DNA of 63,911 nucleotides, counting the filler, from Basidiobolus ranarum (taxonomy: Eukaryota), in assembly GCA_040143965.1 (NCBI GenBank). It is 9 parts of 9 records of this genome, joined end to end, with 100 filler letters (N's around TTAATTAATTAA, not from the genome) between each part and the next. Parts side by side here need not be neighbours in the genome. Positions count along the whole stretch, not along the records: positions 7,145 to 14,185 come from JASJQH010001190.1; 8 more parts are not named here. One strand, written 5' to 3'. Each line of letters starts with the position of its first letter. Within the stretch, counting starts at the first letter, position 1. The notes below the pieces were generated by a model that saw only the letters and a program-made list of their open reading frames with translations, was not told where the DNA came from and ran no database searches. Made by a program: the position numbers and the translations under genes. This document shows, piece after piece, positions 7,145 to 14,185 of the stretch.

Positions 7145-7510
7145 TTGTAAATGAGTTACCTCTGGCTCTAAGGCATCTCCACCCATGGCCAGCTGCTTGT
7201 CAATCAACTCATCATGGTATTTACTAAGATCAACTGTGATATTGAGCTTAGTACCAGGAAACTTGGTTTCGAATGCCTTGGCTAGATCCGCTGCACCATT
7301 AGGCAAATCGCCACCTGCAAAAACAGTCACCAAACCTCCCTCTTTAAGGGCGGCTTTGTAAAGTTTTTGAAGTTGGGCTTCTTCACGCTTGACGTACGAA
7401 GGTACGTAGGAAGGAGAATAGCGTGCAGGACTCGAAGGAAGAGAGTCGACTAAGGCACAGGGTAAGATAGCGGCGGTGGCTGCGAATAGGGCAAATGAGA
7501 AGTGAACCAT
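7145..7510 (-). CDS. Secreted ABC-type solute-binding protein (periplasmic binding protein type II, Fe3+/thiamine/polyamine-like), copy 1, exon 1, truncated
   Basis: Hydrophobic signal peptide MVHFSFALFAATAAILPCALVDS then LYKAALKEGGLVTVFAGGD...FETKFPGTKLNITVDLSKYHDELIDKQLA; paralog of copies 2 and 3. Confidence 0.8.
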
Positions 7511-8845
7511 TGCAATGATCAGAATAATGAAAAATGTAGAATGCCCTTGAACTTTTATAGCCTCTCACTTGAATCAAATACTATCAGTAAGTATGATAGT
7601 ATTTCATTTTAGGGAATGGTAGGTGTAGATTGGTCACAACCATTCTTAATCGAACGCTACTACTTGAGATTTATTGGGCTTTGTTAACTATATTTGGAAT
7701 GCATACTACTCAAATCATGCATCCAAATACTAACACCTGATTGCTTTAACGCTGAAGGCAATGCGTTCAAGTGATAAAATTGTATAGCAATAACTCTAAA
7801 ATAGGCTTGATCGAGACTGTGCAAGGTTGTCGTTGGAAAGTAGGTTGAATATTGTAGTTCATTTCAATAAATTAGCTACGTCGCTTCACTATTGTAACCC
7901 TGGTACCATTGCCATATATGTCTGCATGTAGAGGGATTAGATGAGGCTATCCATGCATCAATACTTTACATAGATGCATTTACTTCTATTTACAAAAGTT
8001 TCCCCGATGAACTCAGCGAAAAGTAGCCAATATTTGAAACTTCCAAGACTAACTGCAAAATTCTTTGGTTACTAGAGGCTGAATGGCGTTATAAATCTAC
8101 CTTTGACCGGTGGGTTATGACATAATTTTTTCAGTCAATTTGAATAATCCCCATTTAGATTATTTATTAATTAATACTTCGTTAACAGAGACTTGTTGGC
8201 TTGTCCACAAAGTGAATTGCATGCTAACCAATACGTGCGATTAAGTACCTCATTAGTTGTGTCAAAAAAACTCAGTCATTCTCAACCGCGGAGTTTAACG
8301 TGATCTACGCTTTATATTATGTATCGTTATCAAAAAACCGTTTAATTGTCACTAAGATAGAACCGATCGTCCCACGCAATCATAGTATTCAGATATAAAA
8401 GGAGAGTGGCAATAAATCACATTGATGACATGATTCATGTTATTGTAGCACCAAGTCATTGTTTGCTTATGTCAGTTAGTATTTAATGTAAGTTCATACA
8501 AATATTATTCATTTATCGCGATGCTCTAATCATATGATGTAACAGTCGATTACTTCGAAGTTTTCCACAAAGTTTGCAAATATCATATTATTTACTATTG
8601 GATTGATTGAAAGTAATTTTGGGGTATACATAGATACCAAGCAATCGATTTGTACCATCGAAAGAATACAAGAGTGTATACTACTTATGTTAACATCAGG
8701 AATAGCTGCTCTGGTAGAAAAAGGCATCAGATATTTAATACTTGTGTCAACACTTATTTATTTATTGGTATCCGTTAAAGATACAATAATTGCGGTAATA
8801 AATTGGGTATAGTTTTCATGGCATGAACCTGAATGAACAGTAAGT

Positions 8846-10031
8846 TTAACTATATTCCAAGTCAAGTGGAGAGGCTCCTACGACGGGTCCAATAAATTTC
8901 TCCATAAATGCCTTATCTTTCTCCACTTGAGCACGGTCCATCATATAGTCGCGGAAACCAAGAGGATCAGTATTCTTGACCTGCCAAATATGCTTCATGC
9001 CAGCTGGAGGAGGTACATCCACTCTCTGGGACCATGTATCGGTCATGAGATTCTTTTGAACATCATAAGATGTCAACCAACTAACATACAGCTTAGCAGT
9101 TGCTGGATGCTTTGCTTTCTTGAAGATGGCCCCGGTTTGTGCCCATGACTGGAAGAATGTAGTCTTAGGAACAATGGTTGTAGCTTTTTCTCCTGGAATT
9201 GGCTTCAATGATCCCGCAGTGGTAAAACTGACAGTGGAGGTACCGTTGTTGATATAGTACACTGGGGTAGTGGTGCCACGGACAGCCAATGGCTTTTGTG
9301 CAAGGTAGGCCTTGAACCAGTCTTGACCGTTCTGTTTAATCAGTCTCATGAATTGATAGAGGACAGCATCATCATCATGGGGATAAGCGTAGATGATCTT
9401 GCCATCTTTAAATTCTGGCTTCAAATAATCGACTGCTTCAATTGGCCTTTGAGCTTCGGGAAGACTAGTGCTAACCAGGTTAGTGAAGTAATAGATGTTG
9501 GTTGCCCAGTAATAACCCTCTGGATCTTTATATGGATTATAGGTGTACTTGAACCCAATCGGCTTGTATCTAGTTGACAAATGAATTAGGATCATTAAAT
9601 TGGTGATAACACTAACAATAATTCACTCACTGCATCAACGCCCCTTCAGATTTCCAGCGTGGAAAGTCCTGCACTGTTTGTAGATGGGTGACATCTGGTT
9701 CTAAAGCATCTCCACCCATGGCCAACTGTTTGTCAATCAACTCATCATGGTACTTACTAAGATCAACTGTGATATTGAGCTTAGTACCAGGAAATTTGGT
9801 TTCGAACGCCTTAGCAAGGTCCGCTGCACCATTAGGCAAATCCCCTCCCGCAAAGACAGTGACCAAGCCTCCCTCTTTAAGGGCATCTTTGTAAAGTCTT
9901 TGTAACTCTGCTTCTTCAAGCTTGACGTAAGAAGGTACAGATGGTACAGGGCCCGAAGGAAGAGAGTGCACCAGGGCAAAAGGCAAAATAGCGGCGGTAG
10001 CGGCGAATAAAGCAAAGGAGAAATGAACCAT
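8846..10031 (-). CDS. Secreted ABC-type solute-binding protein, copy 2 (complete, 2 exons)
   Basis: Exon 1 10031..9631, 61-nt GTGAGT...CTAG intron 9630..9570, exon 2 9569..8846; DVTHLQTVQDFPRWK, YPHDDDAVLY, QTGAIFKKAKHPATAKLYVSWLTS...Q are typical of bacterial ABC substrate-binding proteins. Confidence 0.85.
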
Positions 10032-11079
10032 TGTGAACTCAAGATACTCAATTTGGAATAATGACTAAAGGTGAAAACTCACCTGGTTTTATAGGGTCGT
10101 AACTTGTACGGTACATTCGAGTTGTATAGGTGTATATGGTAATGTTAAAAGTTACACTGAATGATTATTTCCTCTTCAAAGTGAATCTTGTGATTCGGGT
10201 AAATTCAATCGGATAATATATCTCGGTTAAGGTTTGTTATATCCTCAGGGATCATCAAGTTAGTAATCCAATTTTTCTCTTTTGGTGTAGCTCGTATGCT
10301 AATTCGGTTCTATCATGAAACAGTCCAATCTAAATGTAACATGAAATGTATAAATAAGGAAGTCGCTCAGGTTTGATCAATATATTGACAGCGGTCCTCG
10401 CACACTGGACTGTTTGCTACATATATGGAATGTGGCGATTCTAATATATTGACTACATAACACTCCAATACGTAGTTCAGGAACCATTACCATATCCGAA
10501 ATAGACAAGACATATGTGGGGTCTCAGATGAAAGTCTTGGCTCACTAAATAAGATATGGGCGTGAAACTCTTAGTGGAAGCCTCTAAATGTGTTCAATAT
10601 CGATGAATGAAGGTGCTTACCTACTCTGAAAATGCCACTTCTTGTCCTGATGTAATCATATATTATGGTCAGTAACTGTAACATTGGACTCATCATTTCT
10701 AACGAGCACGCAATTCTAGAATTCAAAACAATATCTATACGAGATTACTATTGGTCACCATATTCCTAAAAAACCACAATGTATCAAAACCAACGATTCA
10801 ATTTTGGTTTCAAAGGATCACGTAAACTTCATTACTATACTTTATTACTATACTGATAGTGTTCAGATTAGATATTTTCGATTAAAAAAAAGCGACATTC
10901 GTATCTAATCGAAGATCAGATCAGATTAGCCCATTATCTACCACTTCATTGGTACACTTTCATTTATTGCTTTATTATATAAATTCTACATGAAATCGAT
11001 TTACTGATTGAAGTGTGCTGCTCAATCTCCATTTAATTAGAAGCAATCTTGATTCGTCAAAGTAATATGCATGTTCACC

Positions 11080-12849: not shown

Positions 12850-12925
12850 AAATAGATCTGATTACGGCCCACGTTCCAGATCACATAACATGTGGCCTAT
12901 ATCTCCTTTACAATCCATCACTCCC

Positions 12926-12984
12926 ATTGTTGCTGTTTGCTGATATAGAATGTCCTATTGTTGCTGTTTGCTGATATAGAATGT
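12926..12984. repeat. 31-bp-period tandem duplication
   Basis: ATTGTTGCTGTTTGCTGATATAGAATGT starts at 12926 and at 12957. Confidence 0.9.
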
Positions 12985-14081
12985 ATTACCGTTATTCTAC
13001 TATTCGTATATCGAATAATGACACTTTACACACTAACTGGTTCGATACATTTGTGTGATATGTGTATATATGGTATCGACCTTATTTTAACGTATTGTTC
13101 AAATGGTGAGTAGTTGTCAAACTTGGTCATTCAAGTGTAGGTGGCCATTCAAGTATAGGTAGACGGATAGTACTCTCCCGTAAGACTTGTGATATGTACG
13201 TTCGTGGACTTTTTCGGCTTAGTATGCTCCACGTAGATCGGAGACTACCTGAAACAAATACAAGTTTATGACGCTTATATAGCTAAGAATTAAAATCTAA
13301 TAACAGCTTAGATTTAGATCAGATTTGGGTAGAGACCAGACGCCAATCTCATATCAGACTATCTACTACCGATTGAAAATACTAATTCCATCCTATTGGC
13401 TCTACATTACCTCATCCTGTAACCTAGGTATTATTGCCCTATTCAACAATGATGGACATACATGCCTTACCAAATAAGTTACAAATTTGAAACACCTATA
13501 TAGAAGCAGTTCAAATAGTTTGTGTTCAGTTCCGAAAAACCAAGCTGACTGCAAAATAGACTTTGCAAACACAATGACTAGTGTCTTTTCAGCCTTTAAC
13601 ATTTAAAAACTTTGAGTGACAGGCGTCGCTAAAGATATACAATCTATATATATTCAAATACTGCATTCATAAATTAGAATCAATATATGGTGAATATCTT
13701 TAGATTTCGTTTTATTAATACTATCTTGAGCATACTCCTTGCTCTATGGTGAACTTGGATCAATAAACATTTGACCAATACGGCCCAAAATTAGAAATAC
13801 CCTCAATGATCATCACCATATTCGATGTATGCCACTGTTGCACCTTATGTAGAATTAACACTTGAGCTCATCAAGTTACAAGTGATTTTATCAATAAATT
13901 TATTAATGAAACTGTATACATCTACATTTTCCGATGAACTGGCTAACTATGACCATAAACTATTCAATACTTTTATCAATATTTGTTTATTAATTGATAA
14001 CCATTAAATACACGATAATCGCAGTAATAAACCGGGTATATCTATCATAGTATGCATCTGAATTAACAATGATACTTCAGT

Positions 14082-14185
14082 TTAGCTATATTCCAAGTCA
14101 AGTGGAGAAGCACCTACAACCGGACCAATAAGCTTCTCCATGAATGCCTTATCTTCCTCCACTTTAGTGCGGTTCATCATGTAGT
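14082..14185 (-). CDS. Secreted ABC-type solute-binding protein, copy 4, C-terminal end only
   Basis: Reads YMMNRTKVEEDKAFMEKLIGPVVGASPLDLEYS*, matching the C-termini of copies 2 and 3; cut by the gap. Confidence 0.85.

Follow-up and report, generated by a model that had tools for sequence, protein, structure and literature searches.

A tandem array of ibp-type genes in the fungus Basidiobolus ranarum: family membership, origin and possible role in metal buffering

Layout of the locus

The DNA analysed (the window, 63,911 nt from Basidiobolus ranarum) includes the contig 7145–14185 (JASJQH010001190.1), which comprises 7041 nt between N spacers and carries four co-oriented paralogous genes on the minus strand. 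Copies 2 and 3 are complete and code, when spliced, for proteins of 374 and 378 amino acids, respectively; copies 1 and 4 are cut by the contig ends. The features, with positions counted along the window, are:

7510 to 7145, minus strand: copy 1, the first 122 codons of an ibp gene; the contig end falls before the intron position
7553..7560, minus strand: TATA-like CTATAAAA ahead of copy 1, 50 nt from its ATG
8846..9569, minus strand: copy 2, exon 2 and stop, with the triple-Asp motif (D199-201), R231, M343, R346 and E350
9570..9630, minus strand: copy 2, putative intron of 61 nt, GT..AG, phase 2, with CTAAT 20 nt before its 3' end
9631..10031, minus strand: copy 2, exon 1, with the signal-peptide-like N-terminus, the extra N-terminal helix, S92, K93, Q118 and T119
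10087..10094, minus strand: TATA-like CTATAAAA ahead of copy 2, 63 nt from its ATG
11080..11803, minus strand: copy 3, exon 2 and stop
11804..11864, minus strand: copy 3, putative intron of 61 nt, GT..AG, interrupting the codon that the copy 2 intron interrupts, with CTGAT 20 nt before its 3' end
11865..12277, minus strand: copy 3, exon 1; start 12277 preferred over a longer database model
12331..12338, minus strand: TATA-like CTATAAAA ahead of copy 3, 61 nt from its ATG
13961..14081, minus strand: 3' flank of copy 4, resembling that of copy 2
14082..14185, minus strand: copy 4, truncated at the contig end, with its 33 final codons and the stop present (14183-14082); these 33 amino acids are 85% identical to those of copy 2

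A self-comparison (blastn) aligned 8732-8949 with 13961-14185 (copies 2 and 4; 78% across 225 nt, of which the coding end is part). The original prediction of a tandem array of at least four co-oriented paralogues, with both contig ends lying inside copies, agrees with the gene coordinates and with a tblastn search with copy 2, in which six segments were found, all inside the four genes, and no fifth copy in the whole window. Other stop-free frames of at least 80 amino acids on the contig, judged by eye, were not gene-like, and the contig was seen to carry no ABC permease or ATPase gene, as had been noted before.

Gene structure and selection

The 61-nt intron that copies 2 and 3 had been proposed to have in common was recovered upon splicing: in both genes it is of phase 2 and interrupts the same codon, 44 of the 61 bases are identical, and a CTRAY branch-like word is found 20 nt from the 3' end. 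Splicing of both introns is thus predicted; without it, the frames of copies 2 and 3 end at 134 and 138 amino acids. Spliced copy 2 is exactly the database protein P0001, and spliced copy 3 is contained in P0002, the model of which has 12 extra N-terminal residues. Because of the TATA position, the start at 12277 is preferred over this longer model. It should be noted that CTATAAAA is not enriched across the whole window (9 occurrences versus 6.0 expected, with 16 of 100 shuffles as high) and that only its position ahead of all three starts is telling. The SreA-type motif ATCWGATAA is absent within 600 nt upstream of copies 1–3.

Copies 1 and 2 are 92% identical over 118 aligned codons (dN/dS 0.053), and dN/dS is 0.05–0.09 in all three pairs among copies 1–3, which are therefore under purifying selection. 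That the array is a contaminant, an assembly artefact or a group of decaying pseudogenes is very improbable. The breaks inside copies at both contig ends, related fragments on short contigs and several broken or mis-joined Basidiobolus models (P0009, P0011, P0012, P0250 and P0362) could be taken in this sense. However, dS between the copies (0.7–1.4) is far above that of haplotype or assembly duplicates, dN/dS is below 0.1, intron and TATA box are common to the copies, the GC content of the contig (0.382) lies within the range of the other eight contigs (0.348–0.396), a second Basidiobolus species has orthologues on contigs of 67–167 kb, and the Basidiobolus clade has a support of 100. The array is real and the copies are real nuclear genes rather than bacterial contamination, as had been claimed; intron, TATA box, GC content and second-species orthologues all agree on this.

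Membership in the Ibp family

The copies had been described as ABC solute-binding proteins with a periplasmic binding protein type II (PBP-II) fold. The fold was found as expected; the specific family, however, is almost certainly Ibp, already described and structurally solved (PMC6813330; 6FJL/6HHB), and not that of generic ABC solute-binding proteins. In a phmmer search of PDB sequences only two entries had E values ≤0.01, both of them IbpS (8.6e-95 to 6HHB and 1.8e-94 to 6FJL); the family cut-off in PMC6813330 is a PSI-BLAST value of 1e-50, i.e., one from another program and database. The predicted model of copy 2 (pLDDT 91.3) matched Fe-IbpS best among 48,161 chains (Z 45.1, rmsd 1.7 Å over 329 residues; next Z 26.9), and Foldseek likewise ranked IbpS first (TM 0.84/0.91, E 3e-42; next match 1e-16). 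Pfam SBP_bac_1 was above its cut-off (29.7 and 28.4 bits versus 26). Crystallized IbpS has an extra N-terminal helix, a loop where the central ligand helix would be and a C-terminal tail (PMC6813330); the copy 2 model has a predicted extra N-terminal helix (35-52), a coil (252-262) and a tail (361-374). The Tyr-bearing central helix of canonical ferric ABC solute-binding proteins (FbpA/FutA; identity 12–20%) is absent from the model, the coil at residues 252-262 matching IbpS S244.

All eight iron-cavity residues of IbpS (S86, K87, Q110, T111, D191-193 and M334) are present in both copies 2 and 3, together with the equivalents of R223, R337 and E341; the IbpS numbering was counted by hand on the phmmer alignment and agrees with the numbers given in PMC6813330. 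Copy 1 has the cavity S, K and Q up to its break, and copy 4 has the cavity Met. Among 48 aligned members, S92, K93, D199, D201 and R231 (copy 2 numbering) are found in 48, and Q118 and D200 in 47. The paralogue P0004 deviates in two cavity residues (the equivalents of Q110L and T111S).

The dimer region is more divergent. Of the IbpS dimer residues, R223, R337 and E341 are kept in copies 2 and 3, R344 is replaced by K and E353 by P, although these residues alone do not fix the oligomeric state. At the position of IbpS F343 all seven full-length Basidiobolus members have Asp, whereas 109 of 109 others have F, L, Y or A. At that of R344 there is K or M in Basidiobolus, and at that of E353 there is Pro, as in most of the aligned members (28 of 48). 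The C-terminal tail is about 10 residues shorter than in IbpS. A homodimer prediction with two copies of copy 2 residues 36-374 scored 0.01 in both runs, which counts neither way.

Secretion and glycosylation

The hydropathy profile agrees with the proposal that copies 1–3 have a signal peptide and no TM or GPI anchor, the GPI check being likewise one of hydropathy. The N-termini are signal-peptide-like, with a 19-residue Kyte-Doolittle value of 1.9–2.0 from residue 6; after residue 30 the value is at most 1.07, and at the C-termini 0.3 and 0.7. Because no stretch outside the N-termini is strongly hydrophobic, a TM or GPI tail appears to be absent. In a table of PMC6813330, two of three Ibp members of B. 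meristosporus are marked SignalP YES. There are 2–4 N-glycosylation sequons, two sites being typical of eukaryotic members, and the proteins are probably N-glycosylated. The common sites were considered as proof of a single fungal origin and rejected as such, since eukaryote-like sequences far from the fungal groups carry them too.

Copy number in Basidiobolus

The Ibp family, with IbpS of Dickeya dadantii and BcIbp of Botrytis cinerea, its transfer to fungi, oomycetes and animals, its introns, its expansions to six to ten copies and three Basidiobolus members were reported in PMC6813330. The highest fungal copy numbers given there are four in the text and seven Smittium (S. culicis) accessions in the supplement. 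The B. meristosporus members in the supplements (ORX88910, ORX91286 and ORX98517; 366, 376 and 360 amino acids) have the same lengths as P0003, P0007 and P0009, respectively, to which they were matched by length and species only; the identities of these three database proteins to copy 2 are 74, 70 and 61%. Database entries number six for B. meristosporus and 11 for B. ranarum, a number of these being fragmentary, with about ten ibp gene starts under one species label; these counts rest on the species labels of the protein database. The accessible part of PMC6813330 has no mention of a tandem layout in Basidiobolus, a literature search found no paper pairing Basidiobolus with an iron-binding protein, and the accessible parts of the preprint of PMC11291939, of PMC7466969, PMC9391592 and PMC8778642, the supplements of which may list these genes, do not mention them as solute-binding proteins. 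Of the novelty originally suspected in expansion and function, what is new is therefore confined to the high copy number and the tandem layout, with the number of gene starts, the Asp in the dimer helix and the two glycosylation sites as lesser points.

Origin and loss of the ABC partnership

A bacterial origin of the family, intron gain and amplification had been correctly foreseen, all being in line with the transfer, introns and expansions of PMC6813330. In the tree, the Basidiobolus clade groups only weakly with Smittium (support 58), and all fungi as one clade was not rejected (p-AU 0.554), so that the tree is compatible both with a transfer of its own into Basidiobolus and with one old fungal acquisition and cannot tell between them.

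An alignment-based contig scan yielded 593 matches, 572 of them confirmed, the best 80 of which were taken as bacterial loci (18 shorter than 8.9 kb) and searched for ATPase-like ORFs; in a single-protein pattern scan of contigs 0 of 60 matches were confirmed. An ABC ATPase-like ORF was found near ibp in at most 6 of the 80 loci, two of these weak (phmmer; flanks ≤4 kb), and ATPase motif scans gave 1/80 (strict) and 4/80 (loose, one being RecD). Because of this scarcity the Ibp family must have left ABC import before the transfer. The repurposing that had been placed in the fungus is thus not to be sought there, since the bacterial relatives are already without ABC partners and IbpS is secreted. 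No pathway gene recurs across phyla in the 27 representative bacterial neighbourhoods scanned. Conserved neighbours were also considered as a clue to function and dismissed; the clusters were genus-limited (pectate lyase plus KdgM at 8 loci, TetR at 7) or shadow frames.

Proposed function and alternatives

With a probability of about 0.6, we consider the proteins to be secreted low-affinity Fe3+/Cu2+ buffers that would limit peroxide damage. The ibp gene would have come to fungi from bacteria, the intron would have been gained in the Basidiobolus lineage, and expansion by duplication would have followed there. Each gene would give rise to a secreted, probably N-glycosylated Venus-flytrap protein, the canonical ligand cleft of which is remodelled as in IbpS; by analogy, a single Fe3+ or Cu2+ ion may be held weakly by its acidic side cavity (S92, K93, Q118, T119, D199-201 and M343). 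Around the hyphae such a protein could buffer free redox-active metal and lower Fenton chemistry under peroxide stress, the metal remaining available to stronger siderophores; extra copies would most simply mean added dose. The free extracellular metal-binding role, which had also been predicted, is consistent with Ibp membership and the complete set of cavity residues. Secretion, metal binding and antioxidant role of the copies are inferred from IbpS, which binds Cu2+ with a Kd of 11 µM, binds Fe3+ and protects cells from H2O2, and from the fungal BcIbp, which binds Fe- and Cu-NTA (PMC6813330); Basidiobolus is rich in siderophore genes (PMC7466969). It should be noted, however, that in the IbpS crystal iron is poorly coordinated and no metal was bound with Zn, Mn or Cu, that the in vivo ligand may differ according to the IbpS authors, and that the tests of the antioxidant role were made in plant infection (PMC6813330), which is not the niche of Basidiobolus.

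It is possible, albeit doubtful, that the acidic cavity or tunnel holds another ligand, such as a metal chelate or a small organic cation, or a cryptic catalytic site, weak metal binding being a side effect and the paralogues perhaps differing in specificity. The near-invariant polar residues seem more elaborate than a weakly held ion needs, the next structural neighbour (Z 26.9) is MctA, a metal-citrate binder, the two changed cavity residues of P0004 point in the same direction, and the question was left open by the IbpS authors (PMC6813330). On the other hand, no such ligand was found reported for Ibp in the accessible literature, the bacterial neighbourhoods offer no recurring pathway gene, and the defect of the IbpS mutant is lost in plants that make no H2O2 (PMC6813330). 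Unlikely, in our view, is a role as metal scavengers or in starving competitors, along the lines first suggested, by which the proteins would capture iron for the fungus in the amphibian or reptile gut or withhold it from bacteria there. In favour of it, Fe and Cu signals inside bacterial cells were lowered by IbpS, which also set off an iron-deficiency response in leaves (PMC6813330), and both expanded groups of Zoopagomycota, Basidiobolus and Smittium, live in animal guts, Smittium being insect-gut fungi. However, a micromolar affinity cannot beat siderophores (PMC6813330), which Basidiobolus makes (PMC7466969), and the contig has no receptor or permease. A thiaminase-I-like enzyme is hardly conceivable: the class II fold is the same and there is a weak match to TIGR01254 (thiamine-binding; 15.5 bits versus a cut-off of 93.4), but IbpS is a far better match, and thiaminase I needs a catalytic cysteine. 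Because copy 2 is without cysteine, the single Cys of copy 3 being Tyr in copy 2, this earlier suggestion was abandoned.

The buffering role apart, a broader scenario may be offered tentatively. In Basidiobolus, as in the gut fungus Smittium, a bacterially derived ibp gene might have been expanded, here into about ten secreted, glycosylated paralogues diverged in function, some with changed cavity residues and all with the lineage-specific change in the dimer helix. They would serve metal or metabolite buffering for the animal gut rather than aid plant infection, and the true ligand might not be a free ion. As a side claim, the same two positions would have become N-glycosylation sites in separate eukaryotic recipients.

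Comparison with known systems

Since family, structure, transfer to eukaryotes and presence in Basidiobolus were published in 2019 (PMC6813330), a specialist will not be surprised. The array does provide a natural panel of paralogues in a fungus that does not cause plant disease, equalling or exceeding the highest fungal copy numbers of PMC6813330, and it should be useful for the question left open there, namely whether Ibp does no more than buffer metal weakly or binds some other ligand, and for its role outside plant infection.

With the cluster-D ABC solute-binding proteins (FbpA/FutA/HitA/SfuA, MctA, thiamine and polyamine binders; SBP_bac_1, SBP_bac_11) the copies have the PBP-II fold in common (Z 20–27), but they are only 8–20% identical to them, are without the central ligand helix and lie outside an importer operon. 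They are 61–74% identical to the Ibp proteins of B. meristosporus and form one clade with them (support 100; the tree includes P0003 and P0007); PMC6813330 counts three members in that species, whereas the database search gives six. To IbpS and BcIbp (PMC6813330) they are similar in sequence (46–47% identity over about 329 residues), structure (rmsd 1.3–1.7 Å), all eight cavity residues, the extra N-terminal helix, the loop replacing the central ligand helix, the signal-peptide-like start and the lack of an ABC partner on the contig. They differ from these in the 61-nt intron, the TATA box, the tandem array, the 2–4 sequons, Asp at F343, Pro at E353 and the shorter C-terminal tail, and Basidiobolus is a fungus of animal gut and litter rather than a plant necrotroph.

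Family Identity and Fold

The four paralogues are new members of the known Ibp family of secreted metal-binding proteins, for which the genus Basidiobolus is already on record. In the family's description (PMC6813330), 898 proteins from bacteria, fungi, oomycetes, a springtail and a nematode are counted, about 80% of them with signal sequences; introns are noted in fungal ibp genes, and the spread of the family is attributed to several transfers out of bacteria. Ten copies are given for Phytophthora sojae and six for Folsomia, and the supplements hold seven accessions from Smittium culicis and three from B. 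meristosporus; the latter are proteins of 366, 376 and 360 aa and so match database proteins P0003, P0007 and P0009 in length. No account of the tandem layout or copy number of Basidiobolus ibp genes was found in our searches of the open-access literature.

Copy 2 is identical to the B. ranarum-labelled protein P0001. At full length its sole PDB matches at E ≤ 0.01 are 6HHB (E = 9e-95) and 6FJL (E = 2e-94), i.e., IbpS from Dickeya with and without iron. In structural comparison, too, IbpS is the best match: the AlphaFold2 model of copy 2 (mean pLDDT 91.3) superimposes on Fe-IbpS with Z = 45.1 and an rmsd of 1.7 Å over 329 residues (runner-up among 48,161 chains, Z = 26.9), and Foldseek gave the same answer for this model. 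Generic Pfam solute-binding protein models score close to their cut-offs, the NCBIfam thiamine and phosphonate models far under theirs.

Array and Gene Structure

Nine contigs, each roughly 7 kb long and unrelated to one another, make up the window, with N spacers between them. The array fills one of these entirely (7145–14185), with four co-oriented copies as originally predicted, and a tblastn search of the whole window with copy 2 found no others. The remaining contigs have GC contents of 0.348–0.396, and that of the array contig (0.382) falls between these limits.

Members of the ibp array on contig 7145–14185
7510–7145, minus strand: copy 1, 122 codons, cut
Minus strand: copy 2, 374 aa, one intron needed
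Minus strand: copy 3, 378 aa, one intron needed
Minus strand: copy 4, final 33 codons, cut

Copies 2 and 3 are each predicted to be spliced at the proposed 61-nt GT..AG intron, which falls at the same codon in both; the two putative introns are identical at 44 of 61 bases and have in common a branch-like word that stands 20 nt ahead of their acceptors. CTATAAAA is found 50, 63, and 61 nt upstream of the start codons of copies 1, 2, and 3, outside of which the upstream regions show little alignable sequence. In pairwise comparisons dN/dS comes to 0.053 (copies 1/2), 0.087 (1/3) and 0.061 (2/3) at a dS of 0.72–1.43; the copies are old duplicates under constraint rather than assembly doubles.

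A Lys-Arg pair at residues 41–42 of copy 1 (within 7145–7510), just ahead of the folded domain, is what we take to be a Kex2-like site; it recurs in six other Basidiobolus sequences and is absent from copies 2 and 3. Copies 3 and 4 are separated by DNA that contains two short head-to-tail duplications.

Other features of the window
12766–12849: duplication, 2 × 42 nt, 98%
12922–12983: duplication, 2 × 31 nt, 97%
4621–6390, plus strand: Mem_trans (auxin-efflux-carrier-like) gene, 589 codons, intronless, on the preceding unlinked contig outside the array
36323–37525, plus strand: 400-codon stop-free frame, no Pfam match at E ≤ 0.01
48237–49275, minus strand: Myb/SANT-like (trihelix-type) DNA-binding domain exon, then a coiled-coil-like exon

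Copy Number in Basidiobolus

Copy counts are based on protein-database labels among the best matches listed per search. At least 11 of these entries are labelled B. ranarum (P0001, P0002, P0004, P0005, P0006, P0008, P0012, P0250, P0329, P0386, P0388), seven of them near full length, and about ten distinct N-termini can be read. P0329 and P0005, which differ at 3 of 81 residues, may be alleles. P0005 is a partial model ending 23 residues short of the covered part of copy 4, of which it could be the 5′ portion. P0006 and P0008 are likely a second tandem pair, since their locus tags are consecutive and both are on contigs given as 44,615 nt.

For B. meristosporus at least six entries are among the matches listed, four of them broken or mis-modelled. 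The paralogues of the two species are interleaved in the tree, so part of the expansion precedes their split. The same may hold for the intron, as is hinted by P0250 and P0251 (one model per species), whose ends both coincide with the boundary of exon 1, and by P0011 and P0012, which are mis-joined near this boundary.

Origin

That the Ibp family is of bacterial origin rests on PMC6813330 and on its patchy spread. Our quick IQ-TREE tree without outgroup (63 rows: 37 database proteins and 26 of 80 bacterial loci, hand-picked for spread) unites the eight Basidiobolus rows in one clade on a long stem (SH-aLRT 100), places the ten Dikarya rows in a clade of their own and nests Folsomia near enteric bacteria. 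The tree fits either a separate transfer into Basidiobolus or one old fungal acquisition: the sister relation to Smittium has a support of 58, and a constraint uniting all 20 fungal rows is not rejected (p-AU 0.554; log-likelihood 1.9 units higher). In a FastTree, the signal-peptide-bearing representatives P0222, P0225, P0243 and P0248 lie near Folsomia and enteric bacteria and may be further animal acquisitions.

Sequons at copy 2 N86 and N242 occur in 18/20 and 20/20 named fungal rows versus 1/95 and 0/95 bacterial or metagenomic rows, and in neither of two Folsomia rows. In a tree that used 45 of 143 additional representatives, eukaryote-like rows elsewhere also bear one or the other, which suggests that convergent gain explains the two putative N-glycosylation sites as well as common descent does.

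Of the 572 bacterial ibp loci that were confirmed, the best 80 were examined with flanks of up to 4 kb (short in 18), and at most six of these have an ABC-ATPase-like ORF nearby, three of them Pfam-confirmed; no neighbor family recurrent across phyla was found. The importer role was therefore lost before the fungal copies arose, which argues against the repurposing within the fungus that had been proposed. At one bacterial locus the ibp gene is preceded, at a distance of about 1.9 kb, by a gene for a MalK-like ABC ATPase (L072:963–2114) that reads in the same direction, a possible case of importer context kept.

Function

IbpS is secreted and dimeric, binds Cu2+ with a Kd of 11 μM, has a side cavity in which Fe3+ is weakly bound, and shields cells against H2O2; Dickeya and Botrytis mutants show reduced virulence (PMC6813330). 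Two "ABC-type Fe3+ transport system" proteins are tabulated for a Neofusicoccum secretome (PMC9505667), and much bacterial gene transfer as well as siderophore activity is described for Basidiobolus (PMC7466969).

By analogy, we infer secretion, binding and role of the Basidiobolus copies and give a probability of roughly 0.6 to a function like that of IbpS: secreted around the cells, the proteins would weakly buffer Fe3+ and Cu2+ and so lessen Fenton chemistry, the metal would later be passed to siderophores, and duplication would raise the dose. The analysis itself shows the structure of the genes, the selection on them, their fold and the residues kept. It is unlikely that the proteins bind another ligand or hide a catalytic site, and rather improbable that they capture metal in the gut or withhold it there. 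Artefact or decay is hardly credible for duplicates of such age and constraint, and a thiaminase-I-type enzyme, offered as one option in the original prediction, has next to no probability, copy 2 being devoid of cysteine.

Comparison with IbpS and FutA-Type Proteins

Positions were hand-counted on the PDB match alignment and agree with the residue names in PMC6813330. All eight iron-cavity residues are kept in copies 2 and 3, as are the equivalents of R223, R337, and E341. The copy 2 model has the extra N-terminal helix, and where FutA-type proteins have a tyrosine helix it predicts a loop. Copies 2 and 3 differ from IbpS in having K at R344, P at E353 (P is common in the family) and a C-terminal tail shorter by about 10 residues. 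Moreover, D352 of copy 2 (F343 in IbpS) is Asp in all seven full-length Basidiobolus members and in none of 109 other rows, which all have F, L, Y or A; its position is in the helix that makes the dimer in IbpS.
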